The notes beneath the pieces are model-generated. The model had not been told where the DNA came from. It was given only the letters and a program-made list of their open reading frames with translations, and made no database searches. From Clostridia bacterium (lineage in GTDB: Bacteria; Bacillota; Clostridia; CAKSNL01; HGM11501), in assembly GCA_045545475.1 (NCBI GenBank), contig JAZQAZ010000034.1, positions 33,287-97,286 of the forward strand: 64,000 nucleotides of DNA. The letters are read 5' to 3'. The position numbers and the translations under genes were made by a program. Positions 146-50,312 of this stretch are shown one piece after another. The stretch's first letter is position 1. Each line of letters opens with the position of its first letter.

Positions 146-589
146 TTGATGAAGGGACAAAAGAAAAATATTTTTGTTATTACCTTGATACTGATGTTGC
201 TTTTTACAGCGGTTATAAAAGGTACTGTGGGATCGGAGGATGATCCTTTAATTTCTTTAAGCTATGTTGAAAATGTAATTATGCCCTATATTGATGAGGT
301 CGCAGGTGAAAACGACGGCTTTACCGTGGTGGAAGTTGAAAAGGGAAGCAGCATAGAATTTCATGCTGGTGCCGAAATTATTTTAAGAAGCGGTGAAGGC
401 GTTATTGTAATTCCCAAAAGTGCGGGCGGCGGTTTTACAGATGTAACCTCCGGTGTGGATAAGGCCACAGGCACTTTAGCTGAGGCAAACCATCTTTTAA
501 TTTGTCCAAGAAGTGACGGACGCAGAATAAAGGCTAACTCCAAGCTTTATATTATGGTAAGAGGAAGCTATGAAATTATTCAGGGGTGA
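146..589 (+). CDS. hypothetical protein with N-terminal TM/signal segment, Gly-rich beta-type C-terminal region
   Basis: 147-aa ORF, hydrophobic N-terminus, 4-nt overlap with the next gene; no family recognised. Confidence 0.4.
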   Translation: MMKGQKKNIFVITLILMLLFTAVIKGTVGSEDDPLISLSYVENVIMPYIDEVAGENDGFTVVEVEKGSSIEFHAGAEIILRSGEGVIVIPKSAGGGFTDVTSGVDKATGTLAEANHLLICPRSDGRRIKANSKLYIMVRGSYEIIQG

Positions 590-1854
590 AGAGAATGAAA
601 AAATTGCTCGTTGCCCTGACGCTCCTTTTGTCTGCTTTGTTTATTAATTGCTCTGCCATGGAAATTCCTGATTTTGTAAGAGTTGGAATAAATGCATCAA
701 ACCTGACAGAACAAGTTATTCTTGAAGCAGACGGAGGAGTTTATACGGAGGCTCTCTTTGCCATGCCCGAAGAAGGCGGTGAAGGTTCGGCCTTTTATAT
801 AGCGGAAAGGGCAGAAGTTACCGTTTCCGAAAACGGTACATTAATATGTAACGGTATAGAAACCGACGAAACCGAGGTTGACTTTTTAAAGACTTCGGAA
901 TTTATCGTGTGTCAGGGGAAAAAATACCGAGGAGCCATAAGGCTTAGTGTAAGACACGGAAAAATTCTGATAATAAGCGTTTTATCGATGGATGAATATC
1001 TTTACGGAGTTGTGGGAAAGGAAATGTCTGAAAGCTTTCCCCTTGAAGCGTTAAAGGCACAGAGCGTTGCGGCAAGAAACTATACCGTAATTTCCATGGG
1101 ACGTCATGAAAGTCAGGGCTTTGACCTGTGTAACGGCATCCACTGTCAGGCCTACGGTGCAGTGGCATCGGAGGGCAGTAAAGTAAGGCAGGCGGTGGAC
1201 GAGACAACAGGAAAGCTTTTATATTATGAAGGTGAAGTGGTTCAGTGCTACTATTATTCTTCAAACGGAGGCTACAGCGAAAGCTCGGAAAACGTATGGG
1301 TATCCGAAATCGGCTACCTTAAGGGAAAGGCCGACCCCTTTGAGGACGGCACAAGAATTCCCGGGTATAACTGGGAAGTAACCTTTACGGCAGAGGAAAT
1401 AAGAAACAATCTTGCATCCCGAGGCATTGACATAGGGGACATTGTAAATGTGGAAGTTACGGAGTATTCCGAGAATAACCATGTTACGGAAATAAAAATT
1501 GAAGGCACAAAGGACGATAAATATTATTATAAGGATAACATCAGAGCAGCCTTTCCTCAAAGCCTCAAAAGTACATATTTCACAGTTTCTTCGGGAAATA
1601 AAGAAGCATCGGTAAGAGTTTTATCAATAAACGGTATGGAAACCGTAAAAATAGCTCCGTCCTATGTCCTTAGCGGAAGCGGACTGGCTTATGTAGAGGG
1701 AAAAGGACAAGAAGGCGAATTTACATTTACCGGAAGCGGCTACGGCCACGGCGTGGGAATGAGCCAGTACGGTGCTTACTTTATGGCGGAGCAGGGTTAC
1801 ACCTTTGATGATATACTTAAATTTTACTATACAGACACGGAGATTTCAGAATAA
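586..1854 (+). CDS. SpoIID/LytB-domain protein (sporulation-type lytic transglycosylase family)
   Basis: C-terminal motif [31 protein letters not shown] typical of SpoIID/LytB; signal peptide present. Confidence 0.8.
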
Positions 1855-2882
1855 TGAGAGTAGAAGATTTTGATTATTACCTTCCCGAGGAGCTTATAGC
1901 TCAGGAGCCTCTGGCAGACAGGTCCTCCTCAAGGCTTCTTACATTGGAAAAGAATACGGGAAAAACGGAGCATAAAATATTTAAAGACATTGTTACCATG
2001 CTTAACAAGGGTGATTGCCTGGTTTTGAATAATACCAGGGTAATTCCTGCAAGGCTTATCGGAACCAAGGAGAAAACAGGCGGTGCCATTGAGATGCTCC
2101 TTTTAAAAAGGGTAAATACCTCTGACTGGGAGGTTGCCTTAAAACCCGGAAAAAGAGCAAAGGTAGGGGCGATGTTTGTTTTCGGCCCCAATGAGGAACT
2201 AAAGGCCGAAATTCTTGAAATTGTAGAGTGCGGAAACAGAATCGTACGTTTTTACTACGACGGTCTTTTTGAAAATGTGCTTGATAAATTAGGGCAGATT
2301 CCACTTCCCGGTTACATAACAAAAAAGCTTGAAGATAAGGAACGCTATCAGACCGTTTATGCAAAGTACGACGGAAGTGCGGCAGCACCGACGGCGGGGC
2401 TTCACTTTACAAAGGAGCTTTTATCCTCCATTTCGGAAAAGGGCGTAAAAATTGCATATGTTACGTTGCATGTTGGCCTTGGAACATTCCGTCCGGTAAA
2501 GGTGGATAACATTGAAGAGCACACCATGCACTCGGAATATTTCATAATTGATGAAAAAGCGGCAAGTATTATAAATGAAACAAAGTCATCAGGCGGCAGA
2601 GTTATTGCCGTCGGAACAACCTCCTGCAGAACTCTTGAATCTGCGGCAGATGAAAACGGACATATATCACCCTGCGAAATGAATACGTCAATTTTCATTT
2701 ATCCGGGCTATAAGTTCAAGGCGATTGATGCACTTATTACAAATTTCCATCTGCCCAAATCAACTCTTGTTATGTTGGTTTCGGCTCTTGCGGGAAGAGA
2801 AAATGTGCTTTCTGCATATAAAGAGGCAATTGAAAACCGATATCGCTTCTTCAGCTTCGGCGATGCGATGTTTATAAAATAA
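1854..2882 (+). CDS. queA: S-adenosylmethionine:tRNA ribosyltransferase-isomerase
   Basis: N-terminus [19 protein letters not shown] and overall 342-aa length match QueA; followed by tgt as in the classic queA-tgt-yajC-secDF arrangement. Confidence 0.93.
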
Positions 2883-4836: not shown

Positions 4837-5214
4837 ATGTTAATGATGATGTTAATGTCCATGCCTCAGGGTATGGGTGACACGGCAACAACAGAGGCTG
4901 TTACACAGACAACGGAAGCTGCAACTCAGAGCGGCAGTTCATGGATAACTTTCCTTCCCATGATTATAGTTTTGGTGGCTATGTACTTTATCTTGATTCT
5001 TCCTCAGAAGAAGCAGGAAAAGAAGCAGCGTTCCATGATTGATGCCCTTGTTCCCGGTGATGAAATTGTTACCATCGGCGGTATTTACGGTAATGTTGTT
5101 TCCGTAAAGGATGATTGCATCGTAATCGAATCTTCTGCTGATAAGACAAAGATAAAAATCGCAAAGTCTTCCGTAAGCAGATGCTTAACCGTTCACGAAG
5201 AAGAAAAGAAATAA
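4837..5214 (+). CDS. yajC: preprotein translocase subunit YajC
   Basis: TM helix followed by ILPQKKQEKKQRSMIDALVPGDEIVTIGGIYGNVVSV, the YajC signature; position between tgt and secD. Confidence 0.8.
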   Translation: MLMMMLMSMPQGMGDTATTEAVTQTTEAATQSGSSWITFLPMIIVLVAMYFILILPQKKQEKKQRSMIDALVPGDEIVTIGGIYGNVVSVKDDCIVIESSADKTKIKIAKSSVSRCLTVHEEEKK

Positions 5215-5264: not shown

Positions 5265-5663
5265 ATGGATGAAAAAGAAAAAAGAAAAGGCCTGGATATG
5301 CTTTATGCGGTTCTCGGCTCACTTTTAACGGCACTTGTGCTTACAGGGCTTTCGCTTCTGATTATTTCGGTAATTTATCTTTCAAGAGATTTATCTGACG
5401 AAACGGCAAGAAGCCTGGTTACGGCGGCGGCTCTTGTTTCGGTGTTTGTGTCTGCCTTAATTTCCGGCAGAAAAATGAAAAGCAGAGGCCTTTTAACAGG
5501 CTCGCTTGTGGGGGCGGCCTATTCTTTGTGCCTTTATATCACAGGGGTTCTTGCCTTTGGGATAATGCACTTTTCAAAAAGCTTTTTCGGAATCCCGGCA
5601 CTTTCGGTATTCATCGGGGCCCTGGGCGGAATTGCAGGAGTAAATCTTAAGGGCAAAAAATAA
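5265..5663 (+). CDS. small polytopic membrane protein, unknown function
   Basis: 132 aa, 4 predicted TM helices. Confidence 0.45.
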   Translation: MDEKEKRKGLDMLYAVLGSLLTALVLTGLSLLIISVIYLSRDLSDETARSLVTAAALVSVFVSALISGRKMKSRGLLTGSLVGAAYSLCLYITGVLAFGIMHFSKSFFGIPALSVFIGALGGIAGVNLKGKK

Positions 5664-5803: not shown

Positions 5804-7108
5804 ATGAGAGCAAAAAACATTATTGCACTTATCTTAATTGCGGCAGTTATATTCATGATGTGCTTCGTATGCCTGTTTGATGTAACTATCGGCGATTACA
5901 GATTCCCGGATGCTCTTGATGAAGAGTACGGAATTAAGCAGGGCCTTGACCTGGTGGGAGGTTCGCTTATTGAATTTAAACCTGATACAGAGGAAACACC
6001 TTCTGCAGACCAGATGGCAACGGTTAATTCCATTATGAGAAACCGTCTGGACTCCCAGAGCTATTATGATGCAACGGTAGCAATTCAGGCTGACAATACC
6101 ATAAGAATTGAAATTCCCAACGTGGATGACCCTTCCGAGGCAGTTTCAATTCTCGGTTCCACAGCAAAGCTTACCTTCAGAGATTATGAGGGTAACGTTC
6201 TTATGGAAGGCTCCGAAGAATTCGTTGCAGATGCACAGATGCAGTACGGACAGACTTCCGAGGTTGGTGTAGCACAGTATTATGTTGCACTTACACTTAC
6301 CGCTCAGGGAAGAGAAGCTTTCAAGGCAGCAACAGAGGCTGTTCTTAACTACACTTCCGAGGGTAATAACTACATCGCAATTTATCTTGACGAAACACCC
6401 TTCAGCCAGCCCATGGTATCTGAAGTAATCGATGCAGAATCCTGCGTAATCACAGGTGATTTCTCAAGAGAAAGTGCTGAAACACTTGCGGCACAGATCA
6501 GAAGCGGTCAGCTTCCCTTTAATCTTGCCGTTTCTCAGCTTCAGAGCGTAGGTCCCACACTCGGTGAGGAAGCTCTTTCAAAGAGCCTTGTTGCAGCAGG
6601 TATTGGTATTCTTCTTGTAATCATTTTCATGATTGCATTGTACAGACTTTCCGGTGTTACTGCGGCAATCAGCCTTTGTGCTTACGCAGCACTCGTTGTA
6701 ATCATTCTTATAAGAATCGGTGCAACACTTACACTTTCAGGTATTGCAGGTTTGGTTCTTTCAATCGGTATGGCGGTTGACGCTGACTGTATTATATTTG
6801 AAAGAATGAAGGAAGAACTTCGTACAGGAAAAACCATTGGTGCATCACTTGATGCAGCATTCAACCGTGCAATGGTTGCAATTTTCGACGCTAACGTAAC
6901 AACATTGATCTGTGCTGTAGTGCTTTACTTCTTCGGTACAGGCTCTATCAAGGGCTTCGCTGTTACACTCGGCGTTGGTACATTGGTAAGCTTCTTTACA
7001 GCAATCGTTCTTACAAAGGTTATATTAAAGCTTATCGTTAAAGGCTTTGGAATCAAAAGTTCCGGCTGGTTCGGTGTGAAAGGAGTGGCTATTGATGAAA
7101 CAGTATAA
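5804..7108 (+). CDS. secD: protein translocase subunit SecD
   Basis: LDLVGGSLIEF periplasmic motif and C-terminal 6-TM SSD-like region; followed by overlapping secF. Confidence 0.9.
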   Translation: MRAKNIIALILIAAVIFMMCFVCLFDVTIGDYRFPDALDEEYGIKQGLDLVGGSLIEFKPDTEETPSADQMATVNSIMRNRLDSQSYYDATVAIQADNTIRIEIPNVDDPSEAVSILGSTAKLTFRDYEGNVLMEGSEEFVADAQMQYGQTSEVGVAQYYVALTLTAQGREAFKAATEAVLNYTSEGNNYIAIYLDETPFSQPMVSEVIDAESCVITGDFSRESAETLAAQIRSGQLPFNLAVSQLQSVGPTLGEEALSKSLVAAGIGILLVIIFMIALYRLSGVTAAISLCAYAALVVIILIRIGATLTLSGIAGLVLSIGMAVDADCIIFERMKEELRTGKTIGASLDAAFNRAMVAIFDANVTTLICAVVLYFFGTGSIKGFAVTLGVGTLVSFFTAIVLTKVILKLIVKGFGIKSSGWFGVKGVAIDETV

Positions 7109-8024
7109 TTTTACAAAAAACAGTAAAATATTTGCCATCGTTTCTCTGGTTCTCATTCTTGCCGGAATCGTAGGCCTTGTAATAAACGGCGGTCTTAACT
7201 ACGGTATCGACTTTACAGGCGGTACAAACATTCAGCTTTCCATGAAAACAGAAAGCTATGAAATTTCCGCAACAACAGACGAAATTGAAGACCTTGTGTC
7301 AGGCGTTCTTGGCGGTGCTGAGGTTCAGGCGCAGTCTCTCGGAACAGAGGCCATTGTTATAAAGACTGTTGAGCTCGGCGGATATTTAGATGCAGAGGCT
7401 GAAGCAGTTGAGGGCGAAAGCGATGTTGAAAAGGTTTTCGCAGCAATTGAAGAAGCATATGGCATTTCCATTCCCGAAGAGGAGAGAAACGTAACCACAA
7501 TCAGCGCATCCACAAGTAAGAAAATCTTAACCGATTCTCTTTCTGCAACATTACTTGCTGTTGTGCTTATGCTGCTCTACATCACCGTAAGATTCGAATT
7601 CCTGTCAGGTGCTGCAGCTGTTATCGGTCTTATCCATAACATCGTAATTATGATCGGTGCATATGCACTCTTCCGTCTTCCCATAAACAACTCCTTTGTT
7701 GCGGCAGTTCTTACAATTGTAGGTTACTCCATCAACAATACAATCGTTATTTTCGACCGTGTGCGTGAAAACGTTAAGAAGGAGAGAAAGCTTTCCTATA
7801 AAGATATTGCTGACAAGAGCGTAACTCAGTCTTTAGCCCGAACAATCAACAGCTCTATTACCACACTTCTTACAATAGGAATGCTTTATATCATGGGCGT
7901 AAACTCCATAAGAGAGTTTGCACTTCCCATCATCATCGGTATCGTTGCAGGTACCTACTCTTCAATTTTCCTTTGTGCACCTCTTTGGGTTAAGATGAAG
8001 GAAGCCTTCATTAAGAAAAGATAA
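7092..8024 (+). CDS. secF: protein translocase subunit SecF
   Basis: GIDFTGGT motif, 6 TM, overlaps secD stop. Confidence 0.9.
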   Translation: MMKQYNFTKNSKIFAIVSLVLILAGIVGLVINGGLNYGIDFTGGTNIQLSMKTESYEISATTDEIEDLVSGVLGGAEVQAQSLGTEAIVIKTVELGGYLDAEAEAVEGESDVEKVFAAIEEAYGISIPEEERNVTTISASTSKKILTDSLSATLLAVVLMLLYITVRFEFLSGAAAVIGLIHNIVIMIGAYALFRLPINNSFVAAVLTIVGYSINNTIVIFDRVRENVKKERKLSYKDIADKSVTQSLARTINSSITTLLTIGMLYIMGVNSIREFALPIIIGIVAGTYSSIFLCAPLWVKMKEAFIKKR

Positions 8025-13649: not shown

Positions 13650-14486
13650 ATGGCAGGAAAACTTTATTTATGTGCAACACCCATCGGAAATTTGTCCGAT
13701 ATTACTCTTCGCTGTTTAGAAGTTCTGGAATCGGTTGACTTAATTGCGGCGGAGGATACAAGGCACACCTTAAAATTACTTAACCATTTTGAAATTACAA
13801 AGCCATTAACCAGCTACTATGAGCATAACCGAAAGGAAAAAGGCTATATGCTGGCAGATGAAATACTGGCAGGTAAAAATATCGCCCTGGTTTCCGATGC
13901 GGGCACTCCCGCAATCAGCGACCCCGGCGAGGATCTGGTTGCAATATGCATAGAAAAGGGGATTGATGTTGTCCCCGTTCCCGGATGCGTTGCGGCTATA
14001 AATGCTTTAATCGGAAGCGGTATGCCCACGGGCAGATTTTGCTTCGAAGGCTTTTTAAGCGTAAACAAGCAAAGCAGAAAAGAGCATTTAGAGGCGATAA
14101 AAGACGAAACAAGAACGATGATTTTCTACGAAGCTCCCCATAAATTACTTGCTACATTAAAGGATTTTGAAAAGGTGTTCGGTGGTGACCGCAGAATTTC
14201 CCTTTGCCGTGAGCTTACTAAAATCCACGAGGAATATGTAAGGCTTACTGTTTCCGAGGCAATAGCTAAATATGAAGAAACGCCCCCAAAGGGAGAGTTT
14301 GTGCTGGTGGTATCGGGGGCAGAGGAAAAAATCGAGGACTTTTCATCCTTGTCCATATCAGACCACGTTGAAATGTATATAAACGAAGGTTTATCTGAAA
14401 AGGACGCCATGAAGGCGGTTGCAAAGGACAGAGGAATTAAAAAAAGCGATATATACGCAGAATATAAATTAGGGAAGTGCGACTAA
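13650..14486 (+). CDS. rsmI: 16S rRNA (cytidine1402-2'-O)-methyltransferase
   Basis: MAGKLYLCATPIGNLSDITLRCLEVL tetrapyrrole-methylase-like N-terminus typical of RsmI. Confidence 0.88.
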   Translation: MAGKLYLCATPIGNLSDITLRCLEVLESVDLIAAEDTRHTLKLLNHFEITKPLTSYYEHNRKEKGYMLADEILAGKNIALVSDAGTPAISDPGEDLVAICIEKGIDVVPVPGCVAAINALIGSGMPTGRFCFEGFLSVNKQSRKEHLEAIKDETRTMIFYEAPHKLLATLKDFEKVFGGDRRISLCRELTKIHEEYVRLTVSEAIAKYEETPPKGEFVLVVSGAEEKIEDFSSLSISDHVEMYINEGLSEKDAMKAVAKDRGIKKSDIYAEYKLGKCD

Positions 14487-15133
14487 TGGAAAAGACAAGA
14501 ATGATTTTCGTCCGCCACGGCGAAAGCGAAGGAAATAAGGTACACGCCTTTTTGGGCCATTCCGATGCCAATCTTTCGGAAAAGGGACACCTTCAGGCGG
14601 AAAAGACAGCGGAATACTTAAAAAACGAAAAAATTGACGCGTTTTATTCAAGTGACCTAAAGAGAGCCTATCAGACGGGCTGTCACATCGCAGGCCGTCA
14701 CGGATGTGCACCCATTCCGGATGAGCAGCTTCGTGAGGTTTTTGCAGGTGAGTGGGAATGGAAAAAGTTTGAGGATTTATTAATAGAATATCCCGTAAGC
14801 TTCGGCATATGGAAGGATAACGTGGGCGAGGCACACCCCGACGGGGGCGAGGCGGTAAGTCACCTTTATGACAGAATTATAAAAAGGGTTTGGGAAATTG
14901 CAAGGGAAAACCTTGGCAAAACCGTTTTAATCACGTCCCACGCAACGCCGATCCGTGCCCTTCGCGCCTATTGGGAAGGCTTGCCCGCCGGGGATATGAA
15001 GCTTTTCCCCTGGGCAAGCAATGCTTCGGTTTCAATTGCAGATTACTATGAGGATGGTCACATTGAGCTTGTATGCTACAGCGACGATTCTTTTATGGGG
15101 GATATTGCAACAGCATTACCCAAGAATGTGTAA
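14477..15133 (+). CDS. histidine phosphatase family protein (phosphoglycerate mutase-like)
   Basis: RHGES...G catalytic motif (IFVRHGESEGN) and SHATPIRAL. Confidence 0.7.
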   Translation: MRLMEKTRMIFVRHGESEGNKVHAFLGHSDANLSEKGHLQAEKTAEYLKNEKIDAFYSSDLKRAYQTGCHIAGRHGCAPIPDEQLREVFAGEWEWKKFEDLLIEYPVSFGIWKDNVGEAHPDGGEAVSHLYDRIIKRVWEIARENLGKTVLITSHATPIRALRAYWEGLPAGDMKLFPWASNASVSIADYYEDGHIELVCYSDDSFMGDIATALPKNV

Positions 15134-15220
15134 GGGAAAAATTTTCACTTGTCAACGTCAGCGGCGAATATTTCCTGTTTGTAATGCTCTTTATGATATT
15201 AAGAAAATCAATAAGAACAT

Positions 15221-15472
15221 ATGAAAGGACACAGAATGATTGATAAGAAAAAAATCGAGGAATTGTTCAATTACAGTGCAACTATTCCTCTGAACAATGA
15301 AGGACTTAGAAAAGAATATAGGAAGAATTTGTTGTCGGAACTTGGAGAAAACAAGGAAGAGGTTATCCTTTTTATCTCGAATGCAGACGATGACACACGT
15401 TTTATGCTGGATGAAATCTATGAGGAACTGGCTGAGAAGTTTGGCGAAGAGATTGATGATGTGTTGTATTAA
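15221..15472 (+). CDS. small acidic hypothetical protein
   Basis: 83-aa ORF, no recognisable family. Confidence 0.3.
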   Translation: MKGHRMIDKKKIEELFNYSATIPLNNEGLRKEYRKNLLSELGENKEEVILFISNADDDTRFMLDEIYEELAEKFGEEIDDVLY

Positions 15473-15536
15473 AAATTAGAACCTCAAAAGCTTCTCGCAG
15501 GCTATTACTTTGAAGGAACAAAGATGAAACAAAGGG

Positions 15537-15812
15537 GTGCTATTTTTGAACAGTACAGTATTCACGGTTTTTGTTTTACCTTATTTTATCGGAATAATTA
15601 TAAGACTGATATTTGTTAAGTGGAAAAAAGGATATATTTTAACGGGAGCTTTTGCTGCTCTCTCGGTTATAGCGTGGATATGGACAAAGCACCTTACAAA
15701 TCACGGAGTTGACGGAACTGTAATGCTTTGGGCTTTGATGATGACAGAGCTTACTGTGGGGGCCTTGATTACAGGCGTAATAAGGCTTTTAATAAAAAAG
15801 CTAAAGCGTTAA
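15537..15812 (+). CDS. small membrane protein, unknown
   Basis: 91 aa, three hydrophobic helices; followed by hairpin+T-run. Confidence 0.35.
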   Translation: MLFLNSTVFTVFVLPYFIGIIIRLIFVKWKKGYILTGAFAALSVIAWIWTKHLTNHGVDGTVMLWALMMTELTVGALITGVIRLLIKKLKR

Positions 15813-15828
15813 AAATGCTTTAGCTATC

Positions 15829-15862
15829 GGCATAACGCTTTGGCGTTGTGCCTTTTATTTTT
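15829..15862. repeat. 34-nt direct repeat copy A (ggcataacgctttggcgttgtgccttttattttt); second copy at 16407-16440
   Basis: Exact 34/34 identity; copy B encodes the C-terminus ...KGTTPKRYANDI* of the AraC gene on the minus strand, copy A is a non-coding relic (KGTTPKRYADS*). Confidence 0.8.
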
Positions 15863-16358
15863 ATGTATCGGATAACATGTTGCATATGTCTCTGACAATA
15901 TCATCAATATTTTTTTCTGCTGTAATAGGTGTTTCGTTCAACACATCGGAAAAATCTTTTTCGCGCCACCATCTGCGCATATCTTCCTCACCAAATTCAT
16001 GGCAATTGGATTTTGTCTGATGTCTCTTCAAAGTTTCCTCGAAAGGTAAATCAAAATAGAAAGCGTATATTTCCGAATTATATAGTTTATTGGAGAGTTC
16101 AAATAATGGCTTATACCAATCTGCATTCATTATTCCTTCCAATATAACGATATCGCAATGCTTGTGACCGTATATCAAAAGTTCTTTCATAAGCGGCAGT
16201 GCGAGGGTGTTTTCGCCATCTTTAACTTTAAGCATATCTCTTCTTATTACATCCTGCGAAATAAGCATAGTATTAAATCCGAATCTGTCTTGTAATTCTC
16301 TCGCAATCGTGGATTTTCCGCTGCCTGAATTACCTCGGAGTATAATTAATTTTTTCAT
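15861..16358 (-). CDS. P-loop kinase/NTPase (AAA_33 / zeta-toxin-like small kinase fold)
   Basis: Walker A LRGNSGSGKSTIAREL at N-terminus, Walker B-like DIVILEG; 165 aa. Confidence 0.65.
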   Translation of the reverse strand: MKKLIILRGNSGSGKSTIARELQDRFGFNTMLISQDVIRRDMLKVKDGENTLALPLMKELLIYGHKHCDIVILEGIMNADWYKPLFELSNKLYNSEIYAFYFDLPFEETLKRHQTKSNCHEFGEEDMRRWWREKDFSDVLNETPITAEKNIDDIVRDICNMLSDT

Positions 16359-16394
16359 ATTTACACCTCTATGAAAATTTATAATTCTATCTGC

Positions 16395-17216
16395 CTAAAT
16401 ATCATTGGCATAACGCTTTGGCGTTGTGCCTTTTATTTTTTTAAAAAGCTGAACGAAATAGGGAACGTCGGAAAAGCCTGAGCCTTCCGCCGCTTCCGAC
16501 ACGGAAGAGCCGTTTTTAAGCATCTTGCATGCCTCGGAAATCCTTACCCCGTTAAGATAGGAAAGGTATGTAATTCCCGCACTTTCCCGAAACTTTGTGC
16601 AGAAATAAAACTTACTGTAGCCCATTTTTTCCGCTATGTCGGAAATAGAAATTTTCTCACGGAAATGAAGCTTGGTATAGTTTATAATTTCCCGAAGCTC
16701 ACTTTCGTCAAAGGCGTTACCCGATGGGAGAACTTCCTCACGGCTGAAGGTGCGAAGATGAGAAAAAAGGGATACGGCAATGCTTGTTGCCGAAAATATA
16801 TCTTCGGCTTTTGCCAAAGCGTTCACAATGGGCAAAATTTCATCAAAGCAGTCGGGATTTACGTCAATTGACATAAGGCTTTTTCCCTCGGATGCCAAAA
16901 GTGCCTCAAAGCTCAAAAAGGGCGAAAAGCCCTCGGGGGAAAGCTTTACGTTTAAGAGATTACCGCTGCTTTTTTTATAGCTCATTGAATGAACTGTTTC
17001 CGGCGGAATATAAAAAACCTGATTGCCCGACAGCTTATAGCGGTGTCCTCCTATAATCACCTCGCCCGTCGCCCCTGAAAAAAGCAAAATCTCAACAGTT
17101 TCCGCATAGTGGGGTGCGACAAGCTCATCACGGTCAAAGGTCGTATAAATCACCGAAAAAGGTATGCTTTTTGAAAAATCTTTATGCTCTTTAAAAGCGG
17201 TGAAAATATTGTTCAT
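16395..17216 (-). CDS. AraC family transcriptional regulator
   Basis: Cupin-like N-terminal half and C-terminal HTH (YLSYLNGVRISEACKMLKN...PYFVQLFKKIKGTTPKRY). Confidence 0.8.
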   Translation of the reverse strand: MNNIFTAFKEHKDFSKSIPFSVIYTTFDRDELVAPHYAETVEILLFSGATGEVIIGGHRYKLSGNQVFYIPPETVHSMSYKKSSGNLLNVKLSPEGFSPFLSFEALLASEGKSLMSIDVNPDCFDEILPIVNALAKAEDIFSATSIAVSLFSHLRTFSREEVLPSGNAFDESELREIINYTKLHFREKISISDIAEKMGYSKFYFCTKFRESAGITYLSYLNGVRISEACKMLKNGSSVSEAAEGSGFSDVPYFVQLFKKIKGTTPKRYANDI

Positions 17217-21397: not shown

Positions 21398-21415
21398 TAA
21401 GGAGAGGTAAAAAAG

Positions 21416-21516
21416 AGATTCTTCCTCGGCATAGCCTTCATCAGAATGACATAGGTGTACTATGCTGTCATTCTGATAGAGGGGATTCTGAAAGCCCCGA
21501 AGGAAGAATCTGAAAA
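21416..21516. mobile_element. ~100-bp MITE-like palindromic element with 13-nt terminal inverted repeats, flanked by near-identical 16-17-nt direct repeats (21400-21415 / 21517-21533)
   Basis: TIR gattcttcctcgg...ccgaaggaagaatc; inner perfect 12-bp stem atcagaatgaca/tgtcattctgat; flanks aggagaggtaaaaaag vs aggagatgtaaaaaaag. Confidence 0.5.
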
Positions 21517-21770
21517 AGGAGATGTAAAAAAAGTCCAGACCGCAAAAAGGCAAATAAATTAGTGGGTTGGGCAAAGTTACAAACTCTATGTTGTAAAATA
21601 GTGTTGAAAAATCGCATTCCTGCGATTTTTCTTCATTTTGAGCCTTTTTGCTACGAACAAACTTCACCCTCAACGTATCTATATACGCCTTCGGGTAACT
21701 TTCGAAAAGTCTGTAAACAGACTTTCTCAATTCAGTTTGTCCGTTCTGAAGCATTTTTTCCTATCTCCTG

Positions 21771-21800
21771 AAAAAGGGGCTGTAATTATTTTACAGCCCC
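21771..21800. terminator. bidirectional terminator
   Basis: aaaaaggggctgtaattattttacagcccctttatttt. Confidence 0.6.
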
Positions 21801-21801
21801 T

Positions 21802-24636
21802 TTATTTTACAAGATATGCACTTATTTCCTTTACGGTAATTGTACCTGCACCGGTATCTGTTTTGGGTGTAACGGATATTTTCTTAACACAGATTGGTTT
21901 TGTGAAAGTGTAAAGGGATGCACCTGTTGTTATGTCATAGTCGCTGACTCCAACGGACAGTTTATTTCCCTCCGAGTCATATATGTGAACTTCCATTTTC
22001 ATATATTCATCTGATAAGACTGCCGAAATGCTTACACCATCTATCACAAGACCTTCTTTGCCGGGAAACTCCACCATAAGAGTTTTGTCATGAAGAAAAT
22101 CAATGACTTCTGCACTGTCTGTTTCATCAAGAACTGCGGCGGCGGGAAGGTAGGAGGTGTCCTTTTCTATCTTATAGGCGGACCACCCTGTTTTGTTTAC
22201 GAAAGCCTTTTCTCCTGTGGAAGCGTTAAGTGTTGCTATAGTTTCGTCGTTATTTTTTGCTGTGAAGAGACCGCCTATGGCAATGCCACCAAATACGATA
22301 ATGGCAATAGAGGCGATGAGAACCATGAACTTGAAGTTTTTTCCGGAAACTATTTTATTGAAAACACGTTTAATCGGGGAATAATGCTCGCTTACTATTC
22401 CGGATATAACTTTTTTGAATTCCAAAGTGAGGTCTTTATATTCAGGGTGAAGTACCGATACATTATCAAGCTCTTTTTTCAGCTTTTTTATATTACGGTC
22501 ATTGGTTAAAAGTGTATTGTGACGAATGAAAAATTTACGCAGTGACTCATAAAATGATGTGAGGACGGTAAAGTCTGTTCTGATTCCGGGGATATCCCTT
22601 ACAATACGCCCGTTTTTGGTCATAGGTGGAATAAAGAGGTTTGATGATAAAAACCACTCTATGAATTCAAAGGGAGGAATTGATTGCTCCTTATCTATAA
22701 ATTCCAGAATGCTGTCAAAATCCACCTGAGCACGGGAATCCTTTGAACCGTAAATATAAAACAAAATTATGTAAACAATGCGTCTCGGAGAGTCCTTCTT
22801 TTCCTTTATACAACGGAGAAGTAGGGCTTTGAGCAAATCTTCTTTAGCTTTACCGTCTGATTGAGAGTCTGCAAAGTTTGCCCTTATGTTTTCAAAACCG
22901 AAGGCATCATAGTGAACAAATGACATGGCCATATCGTTGGTTAATGCCATTATTTCCTTTGCAGCCATTGCGATTTTGTGTTTGACAGTACATTCTTCGT
23001 TGATTGCTTCTCCGTCGGCAAGGGGGAATTTTTCAATTTTTGCAAGGTTGAGCTCCGAAATATCCAGCGTGGTCATATAGTTTTCAAGAGCATAACGATA
23101 AATTACGTTAAAGAGGGAGGCGTTATCAGGATGCTTGTCTTTAAGGGCAAGACACTTCTCCTCAAGATACTTAACTGCCTCAAAGCGGTCGCCCGAAGTA
23201 TCATAAAGTTGCATTGCTCTTTGCTGTATCATTGATATAATAAGCTCGCTGTCGGCAAGCTGAGGCATTTCGGAAAAAATACTGTCCGCAAATTCCATAA
23301 CCGAATGAACGGTTTTACGCTGTTCGATAAGATAGGTGAAATAGCGTGTTATTAAGCGGTTGCTTTTTGCCATTTTATGCTCTATTAATTTGTTATACAG
23401 CTCGCTGCTTCCTCTGGATGAGTCGATGTGCATGAAAAGAATTTCATTTTCCGAGGATTTAAGGCAGGAATCTATATCCAGCGTTATAAGGTCATAAAGT
23501 TCGTCTTTCTGCTTTTCTGGACAAAGGTCGTATGTTGAAACCAGTCTTTTGAGAATTTCCGGAGGGATCAGTATTTCCTTGCTTTTAATATAGCGTCTGT
23601 AAAGCTTTATAAATTCAGAATAAGAGGCGAGCAGACCTGGTTTGTCATCAGAACGCAAAAATTCTGCAAAAACTGTTGTAATTCTGCCGAGTCTTTGAGG
23701 AAGTGTTTCCTCGTTATCCTTTAAGTTATATATATAGGCAAGGTCGTTATAAAAACGCAGTGACAGAATTTTTTCTGTGGGAAAAGCACGTTCAGCTTCT
23801 CTGGCAAAAGCAAAAAAGTCTGAAAGTGAGGTGCCTGTGGCAAAGCTTGTTGATACAAAGGAAAGGTATTCCTCAGAAAGAGCTTCCTTTGTGTCAGGAA
23901 CCTGAGAACGGTTTTTCTTGCTGAAATTGAATATATAATCCTTTGAAGCGTCATAGGATTCGATTGAAAATCTTCCGCTGGGCGAGACTTTATCGTCGGG
24001 AATAAAGTAGATATTTATTTCGGGGCGAATCTCTGTTTCTCCGAAAAGAGTGCAAAAGCCGGTTTTGCTTCTCATAAAAAAGGGAAGGTATTCGTAGAGT
24101 CCGTACATTATGGCACATATTTTATCAATGTCTGTTTTTCTGGGAAGAGCAATGAAAATTTTTCTGTTTTGCTCAACAGATGCGAAAACAGCGGCGAGAA
24201 GTGCCATGTATTCTGTATGAGACATGTTAAGGGAGGCAAAAGCTTTTTTCAGGAAAGTGCTGCGTTCTTTTGTAAAAGGAAGTTCCTTTAGCGACGGCAG
24301 ATATGGGTTTTTTGCATCATCGGGTTCAGGGAGAGCCAAAATGGCAGCAGGGTCGGAAACAACGGCAGATACATCATCCTGAGGAATGATGTAATTATGG
24401 ATGCAGGAATAAGGTTCTGTAGCCGATTTCATTCCCGTGCCGATTAAAAGACCGCCACCCGATAAAGGAATGAAGCTTTTGTATCCGGGCGAGTCTTTGC
24501 CCTCTAGATAAAAGAGATCCAGCATGGAGTAAAAAGGACGGATTGCATTGTCGATATATTCTTCGGTTAACGTTGTGGATTTTGAAGAAGTTTCAAGTCC
24601 AATTCCCGTTTTTATGTAAATTTGCTGTTCTATCAT
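21802..24636 (-). CDS. large (944 aa) hypothetical protein: ~745-aa cytoplasmic alpha-rich region, single TM helix, ~170-aa beta-rich extracytoplasmic C-terminal domain
   Basis: Long uninterrupted ORF with RBS GGAGGAAAAGG; TM FKFMVLIASIAIIVFGGIAIGGLF near residue 750; no recognisable catalytic motifs. Confidence 0.6.
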   Translation of the reverse strand: MIEQQIYIKTGIGLETSSKSTTLTEEYIDNAIRPFYSMLDLFYLEGKDSPGYKSFIPLSGGGLLIGTGMKSATEPYSCIHNYIIPQDDVSAVVSDPAAILALPEPDDAKNPYLPSLKELPFTKERSTFLKKAFASLNMSHTEYMALLAAVFASVEQNRKIFIALPRKTDIDKICAIMYGLYEYLPFFMRSKTGFCTLFGETEIRPEINIYFIPDDKVSPSGRFSIESYDASKDYIFNFSKKNRSQVPDTKEALSEEYLSFVSTSFATGTSLSDFFAFAREAERAFPTEKILSLRFYNDLAYIYNLKDNEETLPQRLGRITTVFAEFLRSDDKPGLLASYSEFIKLYRRYIKSKEILIPPEILKRLVSTYDLCPEKQKDELYDLITLDIDSCLKSSENEILFMHIDSSRGSSELYNKLIEHKMAKSNRLITRYFTYLIEQRKTVHSVMEFADSIFSEMPQLADSELIISMIQQRAMQLYDTSGDRFEAVKYLEEKCLALKDKHPDNASLFNVIYRYALENYMTTLDISELNLAKIEKFPLADGEAINEECTVKHKIAMAAKEIMALTNDMAMSFVHYDAFGFENIRANFADSQSDGKAKEDLLKALLLRCIKEKKDSPRRIVYIILFYIYGSKDSRAQVDFDSILEFIDKEQSIPPFEFIEWFLSSNLFIPPMTKNGRIVRDIPGIRTDFTVLTSFYESLRKFFIRHNTLLTNDRNIKKLKKELDNVSVLHPEYKDLTLEFKKVISGIVSEHYSPIKRVFNKIVSGKNFKFMVLIASIAIIVFGGIAIGGLFTAKNNDETIATLNASTGEKAFVNKTGWSAYKIEKDTSYLPAAAVLDETDSAEVIDFLHDKTLMVEFPGKEGLVIDGVSISAVLSDEYMKMEVHIYDSEGNKLSVGVSDYDITTGASLYTFTKPICVKKISVTPKTDTGAGTITVKEISAYLVK

Positions 24637-24755
24637 ATCCTTTTCCTCCTTTTTTGAAATTCATAAATATATTCTATCAAAAGTCAGTACATTTTTCAAG
24701 TTATTCTTGACAAATGAATGAAAATTTTTTATAATATTAAATGTTGTGAATATAT

Positions 24756-24831
24756 GCTGGTGTGGCTCAGTCGGTAGAGCAATTGATTCGTAATCAATAG
24801 ATCGTCGGTTCAAGTCCGATCACCAGCTCCA
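24756..24831 (+). tRNA. tRNA-Thr (anticodon CGT)
   Basis: 76 nt, acceptor stem GCTGGTG/CACCAGC, D-loop AGTCGGTAGAGC, anticodon loop tTCGTAa, T-arm GGTTCAAGTCC, 3' CCA encoded; TTGACA-N18-TATAAT promoter upstream. Confidence 0.88.
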
Positions 24832-50149: not shown

Positions 50150-50312
50150 CTTGACAAAATAAGGATTATATGATATTATAATCAACGCAGTTATCCATAG
50201 ACAGCAGGCATAAAGGTAAGTCCTGCCGAGGAAGGTGCAAAAATCCATGAGATTTATGCGGCTTTGTCTATGTGACCAAGCCGCTTTTTTGCGGCTATAA
50301 ATTAAGAAGGAG
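50150..50312 (+). promoter_or_regulatory. rplJ (L10) leader region with promoter (TTGACA...TATAAT) and structured autoregulatory leader
   Basis: ttgacaaaataaggattatatgatattataat then ~120-nt structured leader with hairpin gaccaagccgcttttttgcggc before rplJ RBS; position matches L10-leader in Firmicutes. Confidence 0.5.

Follow-up and report, generated by a model that had tools for sequence, protein, structure and literature searches.

A perfect 34-nucleotide direct repeat around a P-loop kinase gene of Clostridia, probably the trimmed scar of an old cassette insertion at the 3' end of an AraC-family gene

Introduction

How does a single kinase gene come to lie between two perfect copies of a 34-nt sequence, one of which is the working 3' end of the regulator gene beside it? 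This question is raised by a stretch of 64,000 nucleotides from a Clostridia bacterium (assembly GCA_045545475.1, contig JAZQAZ010000034.1, positions 33,287 to 97,286), which is called the window here and in which positions are counted unless another locus is named. The element under study consists of a gene for a 165-aa P-loop kinase, the neighbouring gene for an AraC-family regulator, and the direct repeat that copies the end of the latter. The original prediction held that the kinase gene sits in a 578-bp unit bounded by the repeat, as would be seen if a gene cassette had been inserted by site-specific or homology-mediated recombination. We consider it probable that the repeat is an old insertion scar, namely what trimming has left of a longer duplication of the AraC tail around a horizontally acquired kinase cassette. 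The scar is fixed, and it is not an active cassette with attachment (att) sites.

The repeat and its two copies

The unit consists of the following features.

16407 to 16440, minus strand: right repeat copy, functional AraC codons (K)IKGTTPKRYA
15826 to 15862, plus strand: left repeat copy with 3 nt beyond the 34, a non-coding relic of the AraC 3' end
15861 to 16358, minus strand: P-loop kinase of 165 aa (NCBIfam PRK06762 group, Pfam AAA_33), cargo of the cassette
16395 to 17216, minus strand: AraC-family regulator of 273 aa with cupin and HTH_18 domains

We observed that GGCATAACGCTTTGGCGTTGTGCCTTTTATTTTT forms a perfect 34-nt direct repeat with exactly two copies in the 64-kb window, at 15829-15862 and 16407-16440 of the plus strand, with no third copy in the window at up to three mismatches and with 0 matches in 100 shuffles as the chance expectation for such a pair. 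Read on the minus strand, the right copy gives ...KKIKGTTPKRYA-NDI-stop of the 273-aa AraC/HTH_18 protein, the full tail being ...FKKIKGTTPKRYANDI-stop, and the left copy translates as ...KGTTPKRYADS-stop with no open reading frame (ORF) preceding it. The perfect repeat around one kinase gene was thus borne out by the exact scan, the shuffles and the independent assemblies described below, and so were three further statements of the original prediction: that the right copy is the functional AraC C-terminus (minus-strand reading of 16395-17216), that the left copy is a non-coding relic just after the kinase stop (no ORF in front), and that the sole credible gene between the copies is the 165-aa Walker A kinase (ORF list).

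The edges of the left copy are less simple than the perfect match implies. The TAA stop of the kinase shares 2 nt with it, and in relatives the kinase cassette natively ends, at its 3' side, in the same 8 nt with which the repeat begins (AAAAATAA on the minus strand); at the other edge, the 3 nt past the perfect repeat (GAT on the minus strand, 15826-15828) match the ancestral AraC tail. Judged from these matches, the truly AraC-derived part of the left copy would be about 26 nt plus GAT.

Both copies recur in other metagenome assemblies made independently for this species, in which AraC is 99% identical. They are exact in six of these loci (L001-L005 and L007), and point changes are seen as one mismatch in the relic of L006 and one mismatch each in the functional copy of L009 and L011. 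Since the pair is present in independent assemblies, it is no assembly artefact; with 0 of 100 shuffles, at least seven independent assemblies and a homologue in another species, the probability of a chance match or an artefact is negligible. The kinase arrangement is fixed, being found in 9-10 of 9-10 same-species contigs, and an empty site was found in none of them. The 26-nt core of the repeat had 0 matches in a scan of viral contigs. The 34-mer belongs to no Rfam family in a search of the whole window, whose only Rfam matches were a tRNA at 24756-24828 and an L10 leader at 50177-50298.

An empty site and a longer duplication in sister species

Exact-protein look-ups of the AraC and kinase proteins of the window gave no match, and relatives were reached through homologues. 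Sister species were defined by neighbouring genes that are 80-89% identical in DNA, and four of their loci are referred to by letter: Z (L061), X (L010, GCA_052843735.1), Y (L012) and V (L082). On the far side of the kinase the convergent neighbour is the following gene.

14477 to 15133, plus strand: histidine phosphatase gene, last of the MTS-rsmI-phosphatase block, the convergent neighbour that defines the insertion hot spot

Species Z has an empty site, in which AraC (384-1208, plus strand), a 56-bp spacer and the phosphatase gene (1265-1912, minus strand) follow one another with no kinase and no duplicate. An AraC locus without the kinase, which the original prediction proposed to look for, is therefore present in Z and also in more distant relatives, and the contrary case that it named, an identical arrangement in all relatives with no empty-site allele, is not what the comparison gave.

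In species X the synteny is the same and the kinase has the same place and orientation as in the window, and the duplicate of the AraC tail is longer. It comprises 41 and 20 exact nt, or 69 nt at 97% (67/69; 6750-6818 against 7598-7666), and extends up to about 78 nt; the left relic of the window is homologous to this 69-78-nt relic (L010:7598-7673). The kinase of X is flanked by two inverted palindromic modules (6871-6956 and 7538-7605), and module and relic meet within the outer palindrome arm, some 5 nt in, where CCCT is a microhomology with AraC GTTCCCTAT. Past the relic, sequence resembling the native downstream flank of AraC in Z was read by eye. Comparison with V and Z suggests that the 45-nt spacer of X is likewise a native AraC downstream flank; as a cassette flank common to X and Y this spacer was rejected, the match being only the 10 nt of TTTTATCAAA. 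The 578-bp unit does not hold as a cassette boundary, given that relatives have inverted modules of about 90 nt and a 69-78-nt duplication, of which the form in the window is a deletion product.

The more distant relatives (AraC identity 56-57%), which have no kinase, carry a second AraC-family gene between AraC and the phosphatase gene. This gene encodes 291-292 aa with cupin and HTH_18 domains and is convergent (L078:2668-3543, L079:1260-2135, L081:4362-5240), and it has been lost in the genus of the window. The left copy might accordingly be imagined as what is left of such a gene after most of it was replaced by the kinase, given that the gene stands exactly there and that AraC C-terminal motifs are conserved across the family. 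However, the gene lies on the opposite strand with its 3' end toward AraC and would have left an inverted, not a direct, repeat; the relic is identical to the resident AraC tail at 34/34 positions in the window and 67/69 in X, far above the level of paralogues; and the relic of X runs into what appears to be the native AraC downstream flank. We rejected this origin on strand and identity, and regard it as very improbable.

On the reading that we prefer, that of an old insertion scar, an ancestor in this uncultured genus of gut Clostridia would have received the kinase cassette in the short spacer where AraC and the histidine-phosphatase gene converge. The original cassette would have consisted of the 165-aa kinase and its ribosome-binding site (RBS) between two inverted G/C-run palindromic modules of about 90 nt, and its insertion would have duplicated the last 70-80 nt or so of AraC, with the gene itself remaining whole and its copied tail, which codes for nothing, lying beyond the cassette. 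X would still show this state of long duplication. An integrase would be a less probable agent of the insertion than an illegitimate or replicative process (break repair from an ectopic copy, or template switching), because a local duplication of tens of bases flanks the copied segment and microhomology is found at the junction. The insertion is old, because it is fixed in the 9-10 same-species contigs and is shared with a species only about 80-86% identical in neighbouring genes.

The same observations could be read as the attL and attR sites of a non-autonomous cassette, in which a tyrosine or serine recombinase encoded elsewhere integrates a circular kinase unit carrying the AraC tail and so restores the gene. 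One gene at the 3' end of a host gene does stand between identical direct repeats, Z has an empty site, and both copies in each genome share the variant of that genome. Nevertheless, no recombinase is encoded in the unit or beside any of the loci (a trans-acting one was not searched for), the repeat measures 34 nt in the window and 69-78 nt in X with the edge in the window set by a secondary deletion, and the same cassette has no flanking duplicate in Y nor on the visible side of V. Again, the junction of X cuts a palindrome arm at a 4-nt microhomology, and no same-species contig has an empty site. We hold this explanation to be improbable. Of the recombination proposed by the original prediction, the insertion itself therefore stands, with Z as the empty site, and its site-specific character is not supported.

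Palindromic modules and the mobility of the cassette

The modules, which share the core AGGGGGATTGCGATTTCCCCCT, lie at the following places.

L010 (X), 6871 to 6956 and 7538 to 7605: palindromic modules on both sides of the kinase
L012 (Y), 4861 to 4946 and 5515 to 5605: palindromic modules on both sides of the kinase
L082 (V), 1 to 72 and 640 to 725: palindromic modules on both sides of the kinase
L002, 260 to 331: palindromic module, solo

Each module is a G/C-run palindromic unit of about 90 nt, and two of them in inverted orientation flank the kinase in sister species. A module is made of a perfect palindrome of about 45 nt around the core hairpin (-33 to -37 kcal/mol), a variable C-run stretch that occurs as types A and B, and a 26-nt inner repeat, CCCCTTGAAACGCTTAAGTTAGTTTG, which forms a perfect inverted pair. 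The inverted pair brackets the kinase without a transposase in X, Y and V; L048 has a module at one end, and the modules are absent from the 64-kb window. In Y the kinase and its modules stand behind an aldo-keto reductase gene, with no flanking direct repeat of at least 12 nt and no shorter one evident when the flanks were read, and in L048 the cassette follows a sialate-esterase-like gene. In V the kinase is followed by module B', about 70 nt resembling the AraC downstream flank of Z, and the phosphatase 3' end; no AraC relic follows the cassette on this phosphatase side.

The order of the modules is A-kinase-B' in V and B-kinase-A' in X, types A and B being swapped between X on one side and Y, L048 and V on the other, which implies inversion across the 26-nt inner repeat. 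A solo A module with a GAGGTGTAA remnant stands after the reductase gene in L002 and L003, where Y has the full cassette. Among the congeners the divergence of the kinase is similar to that of core genes although its positions differ. The module core has 13 exact matches in the metagenome collection and 0 in viral contigs, and the modules belong to no Rfam family.

These features invite a second explanation, in which the palindrome-flanked kinase is an invertible cassette mobilised in trans that repeatedly hits the terminator-rich spacer after the phosphatase gene, the AraC duplication being a by-product of insertion. In its favour, the cassette adjoins the phosphatase 3' end in the window, X and V at different positions relative to the native flank motif, and the opposite module orders, the solo A module, the core-gene-like divergence at differing positions and the related palindromes in other metagenome contigs all fit. 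Against it, there is no short target-site duplication and there are no precise ends (the flanks of Y; the truncated end of X), and no transposase or invertase was identified, the RAYT type not having been looked for. Only five loci are informative, two of them short contigs; homologous exchange among congeners and recombination between repeats could give the same picture; and the modules resemble palindromes of the repetitive extragenic palindromic/bacterial interspersed mosaic element (REP/BIME) kind, which promote rearrangement without being transposons. We consider this explanation unlikely, yet more likely than att sites. Bolder still, and less likely again, is the proposal of an undescribed class of non-autonomous cassettes that carry REP-like modules, flip over the 26-bp inner repeat, relocate to the phosphatase spacer and duplicate the 3' end of the neighbour so that the host gene survives, with the window holding a domesticated, immobilised copy.

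As a separate observation, related palindromes starting with TGTCAAGGGG occur in unrelated contigs (L050:283-347 and 1378-1405, L053:259-285, L054:245-295, L057:166-185, L049 and L055). They adjoin genes other than the kinase, such as AbrB-like, RHH-like and XRE-like small ORFs and genes for solute-binding proteins, and other short repeats surround them in mosaics, a picture that resembles a REP/BIME-like system in some Clostridia.

Origin of the trimmed form

Two further features of the window bear on how the insertion scar was trimmed.

16359 to 16385, minus strand: remnant of the cassette 5' untranslated region (UTR) with RBS (ATTATAAATTTTCATAGAGGTGTAAAT), 27 nt upstream of the kinase ATG, identical to L082:103-129
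16386 to 16406, minus strand: remodelled AraC tail, AAT GAT ATT TAG plus 9 nt, replacing the ancestral ...DEVR-stop

Of the cassette, the window keeps only the ORF, preceded by the last 27 nt of the 5' UTR (RBS included) and closed at its stop by the 9 nt TAAAAATAA; of the AraC-tail duplicate, 26-37 nt are left. Upstream of the 5' UTR remnant the rest of the cassette is gone, the inverted-repeat module included.

At the downstream end, the kinase runs as ...CATAAAAATAA|CCCC into the module in X and V, as ...CATAAAAATAA|AAGGCAC in the window, and the corresponding AraC sequence is TTTAAAAAAATAA|AAGGCAC. A deletion at this microhomology would have joined AAAAATAA at the kinase stop to AAAAATAA of the AraC KKIK codons in the relic, taking out one module and the front of the relic. 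This event accounts both for the length of the repeat, exactly 34 nt, and for its position directly against the stop codon of the kinase. At the upstream end, AraC closes with ...RYA-NDI-stop in the window against the ancestral ...RYADEVR-stop, and the new tail resembles 5'-UTR sequence of the cassette (AATTGATAGGC in V). The 21-nt tail at 16386-16406 thus probably comes from the cassette 5' UTR, and a second microhomology deletion would have fused AraC after ...RYA to that UTR, giving the NDI-stop tail and removing the other module.

Conservation of the relic and the terminator-like hairpins

The relics of the window and of X differ at 1 of 34 positions, where the neighbouring genes are 79-86% identical (P about 0.005 under neutrality). 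On the plus strand both repeat copies have the shape of an intrinsic terminator, with a stem of 10 pairs (6 GC), a 4-nt TTTG loop and then TTTTATTTTT; the hairpin has -17.8 kcal/mol, with z of -3.6 and -4.7 for the two copies. The original prediction also took the right copy to carry the terminator of AraC, which is wrong, since hairpin and T-tract face the plus strand, antisense to AraC, and therefore cannot be its terminator. The left copy starts 17 nt past the stop of a plus-strand ORF of 91 aa, and from this placement it may serve as a putative terminator of the transcript of that ORF. The relic would then probably have been kept by selection for the plus-strand hairpin and T-tract that end transcription from rsmI, the phosphatase gene and the 91-aa ORF. 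The coding copy may also help to conserve it through gene conversion, and independent, recent duplications are a third possible reason.

Two other signals in the window concern the kinase transcript.

15788 to 15825, minus strand: terminator-like hairpin for the kinase transcript, AGCTAAAGC, a 9-nt loop and GCTTTAGCT, then TTTTTATT
16384 to 16411, minus strand: promoter-like site for the kinase, -35 ATGCCA, 16-nt spacer, -10 TAGAAT, a consensus match only

The hairpin at 15788-15825 overlaps the stop of the 91-aa ORF on the opposite strand, and the -35 ATGCCA falls inside the right repeat copy.

We also observed that the last codons of AraC (GTTPKRYA after KKIK) form a stable antisense hairpin with a T-tract in the window (16407-16440), in X (L010:6777-6810) and in Z (L061:1162-1195). 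It is kept by pair-preserving changes in X (perfect stem, TTCG loop) and in Z (two G-T pairs), and it is absent from the distant AraC orthologues that were compared. The coding end of AraC may therefore double as a terminator for the convergent operon, as far as can be read from the sequence.

Several points weigh against the history of a single insertion followed by trimming. Both copies in a genome carry the loop variant of that genome (CAAA in the window, CGAA in X), so that gene conversion or independent duplications fit the conservation of the relic as well as selection does. The kinase of the window is 96.6% identical in DNA to that of V and 88% to that of X, and this closeness to V conflicts with the distribution of the relic, which is present in the window and X and was not found in V; a single insertion with deletions is therefore insufficient, and recombination among congeners or repeated insertion is needed. 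Judged by neighbouring genes, the window has a closer relative in Z, the species with the empty site, than in X, so a single origin needs a precise loss in Z or lateral exchange. The contig of V is 814 nt long and the upstream flank of its cassette lies beyond its end. Finally, the terminator and promoter functions are putative and are proposed from pattern matches.

The kinase gene

The kinase carries the Walker A motif GNSGSGKST at residues 9-17 and matches NCBIfam PRK06762 models over residues 1-164, that is, its full length: NF005257 marginally (202.8 against a cut-off of 202), NF005255 at 176.4 against 140 and NF005253 at 175.7 against 159. Pfam AAA_33 (PF13671) covers residues 4-118 with 36.4 bits against a threshold of 27. 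The original prediction placed the protein in the small-kinase fold of zeta-toxin-like and AAA_33 kinases and listed chloramphenicol phosphotransferase (CPT) among the candidates. AAA_33 was confirmed, whereas zeta toxin (PF06414, 20.0 bits below the cut-off of 22.3, residues 2-40) and CPT (PF07931, 20.8 bits below the cut-off of 22, residues 3-43) fell short and matched at the P-loop only. The toxin PezT was likewise rejected, with an NCBIfam score of 15.8 against a cut-off of 470, and no epsilon/PezA-type antitoxin gene stands upstream of the kinase, the AraC regulator being 36 nt away with no small ORF between.

An AlphaFold model of the kinase has a pLDDT of 82.6, and its top PDB matches are NRK1, gluconate kinase and polynucleotide kinase (PNK); the closest solved structure by sequence is T4 polynucleotide kinase (E 0.017). 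The predicted fold is the generic one of nucleoside monophosphate (NMP) kinases, to which nicotinamide riboside kinase, gluconate kinase, polynucleotide kinase and adenylate kinase are about equally similar, and therefore no substrate can be assigned. PADLOC and PHROGs gave matches at the level of the P-loop only (VakA, 6.5e-5, residues 1-52; polynucleotide kinase, 1e-9). Homologues in plasmid and phage collections are just 30-58% identical and are labelled 'kinase', 'AAA family ATPase' or 'hypothetical protein', or are unannotated. A literature search on PRK06762 found no paper, and no family member with an established substrate was met. The role of the protein would be that of a P-loop kinase of the small-molecule or nucleotide type.

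The family is large, with 4357 cluster representatives at E<=1e-10, the best 120 of which are all at least 75% identical. Contexts vary by genus, the homologues lying for example beside a GH36 melibiase gene, between HIT and Mur-ligase genes or beside CorA. The GC content of the kinase is 0.32-0.37 although that of the host locus spans 0.34 to 0.55, and L073:293-790 and L074:417-914 carry kinase DNA that is 100% identical between different flanks (GC 0.47 against 0.53). Because of this low, host-independent GC, the varied neighbourhoods and the identical allele in two contexts, the kinase is an accessory, horizontally moving gene. A conserved housekeeping paralogue, which the original prediction had named as the contrary case, it is not, the context differing in almost every genus. 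In about 30 other genera no direct or inverted repeats were found flanking the homologues, which makes both the palindromic modules and the duplicate of the AraC tail a peculiarity of this genus.

Two observations on the kinase ORF stand apart from the question of the repeat. In other genera (L062, L066, L070, L073 and L074) the ORF is accompanied upstream by some 60 nt of conserved sequence that holds an extended -10-like TGATAGAAT, and a short inverted repeat spans the ORF (GACAAACTTGAATTT ... AAATTCCAATTTGTC). Shortened ORFs occur in two same-species contigs (L003:6859-7257, 132 aa; L007:948-1415, 155 aa with about 30 nt missing), which suggests that some strains can do without the kinase, unless assembly errors account for the shortening.

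Neighbouring genes and strain-variable regions

The AraC protein matches HTH_18 at 63.4 against a cut-off of 33.6 (residues 194-270) and HTH_AraC at 51.4 against 26.6, and it is the regulator of a divergent cluster of GFO/IDH/MocA oxidoreductase, radical-SAM activase and glycyl-radical enzyme genes. It is 73% identical to its orthologues in X (L010:6001-6828) and Z (L061:384-1208), which are 82.5% identical to each other, and the genes flanking AraC are 85-97% identical. Either AraC has evolved faster in the lineage of the window or it has been partly replaced.

The spacer between AraC and the phosphatase gene has taken up at least three small genes. Besides the kinase it holds the ORF already mentioned.

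15537 to 15812, plus strand: predicted membrane ORF of 91 aa, between the relic and the phosphatase gene, in this species only

This ORF has no family match, is not found in X, Z or V, and differs from L001 by five synonymous and three non-synonymous changes. An extra segment of about 390 bp (15134-15536) lies in this strain between the phosphatase gene and the 91-aa ORF, and contains an acidic ORF of 83 aa (15221-15472, plus strand) with no Pfam family and a weak MazG-like match (0.0036). PADLOC and PHROGs gave nothing for these two small ORFs. Since L001 has a 31-nt hairpin (GGGAATGCATTTATGCATTCC) at that place, the segment is a replacement and not a simple insertion.

A second strain-variable region is found at 21398-24828, downstream of the glycyl-radical enzyme gene, where the aldo-keto reductase gene of L002, L003 and X is missing. 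In its place stands a minus-strand ORF of 944 aa with a GAP1-M domain (GTPase-associated protein 1, of the conflict-system type; 24.4 bits against a cut-off of 24), adjoining the tRNA at 24756-24828. L002 and L003 have there the reductase gene, the solo palindromic module and a DNA methylase gene.

Comparison with known systems

The fixation of a horizontally spreading accessory gene can be followed clearly at this locus, through four stages still seen among sister lineages: an empty site, a full cassette with flanking repeats and a long duplication of the host gene, a cassette placed elsewhere, and a trimmed, immobilised copy. It also indicates that a perfect repeat abutting a stop codon is no sure sign of a recombinase site, as a secondary microhomology deletion can produce it, and that a relic of coding sequence may be kept since its antisense strand acts as a putative terminator. 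Nevertheless, the kinase family, which is widespread, strongly conserved, low in GC and independent of context in gut Clostridia, is of more interest than the scar. The kind of event is known; this instance of it, and the palindrome-flanked kinase cassette of the sister species, appear to be undescribed.

Mobile insertion cassettes (MICs) are exemplified by MIC231 of Bacillus cereus (cited in PMC6542083) and by those of the Tn3 type in Xanthomonas (PMC4337579). Like these, X, Y and V have a single passenger gene, no transposase, long inverted repeats and varying positions. Unlike them, they show no short target-site duplication or precise ends, their G/C-run palindromic repeats were not traced to any insertion sequence, the copy in the window has lost both repeats, and a host duplication of 69-78 nt is not an outcome of DDE transposition. 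Islets at gene 3' ends with att repeats, such as tRNA-gene islands, resemble the locus in that direct repeats copy the target 3' end, the gene stays intact and a relative has an empty site, but here there is no integrase, the length of the repeat varies with edges from secondary deletions or microhomology, and the cassette occurs elsewhere without repeats.

Intergenic palindromic units of the REP/BIME type are established in enterobacteria. The modules are similar in being perfect hairpins of about 45 nt with extensions that lie downstream of genes and at points of rearrangement, singly (L002) or in mosaics of short repeats (L050, L053, L054), whereas their copy number is low (0 in the window, 13 exact core matches in metagenomes) and they belong to a different sequence family. 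As in integron cassettes, the unit has one small ORF that reads in the same direction as the gene upstream and has a hairpin-forming site behind it; however, its 24-nt hairpin comes from AraC coding sequence and compares with 57-141 nt for attC, its flanks are direct repeats of a host gene, and no integron integrase or attI was found near the kinase, the flanking genes not being intI. The passenger itself conforms to the PRK06762/AAA_33 kinases, annotated by NCBI as 'kinase' or 'AAA family ATPase', with matches above the cut-offs over its full length, a Walker A motif and a predicted fold like that of NMP kinases.

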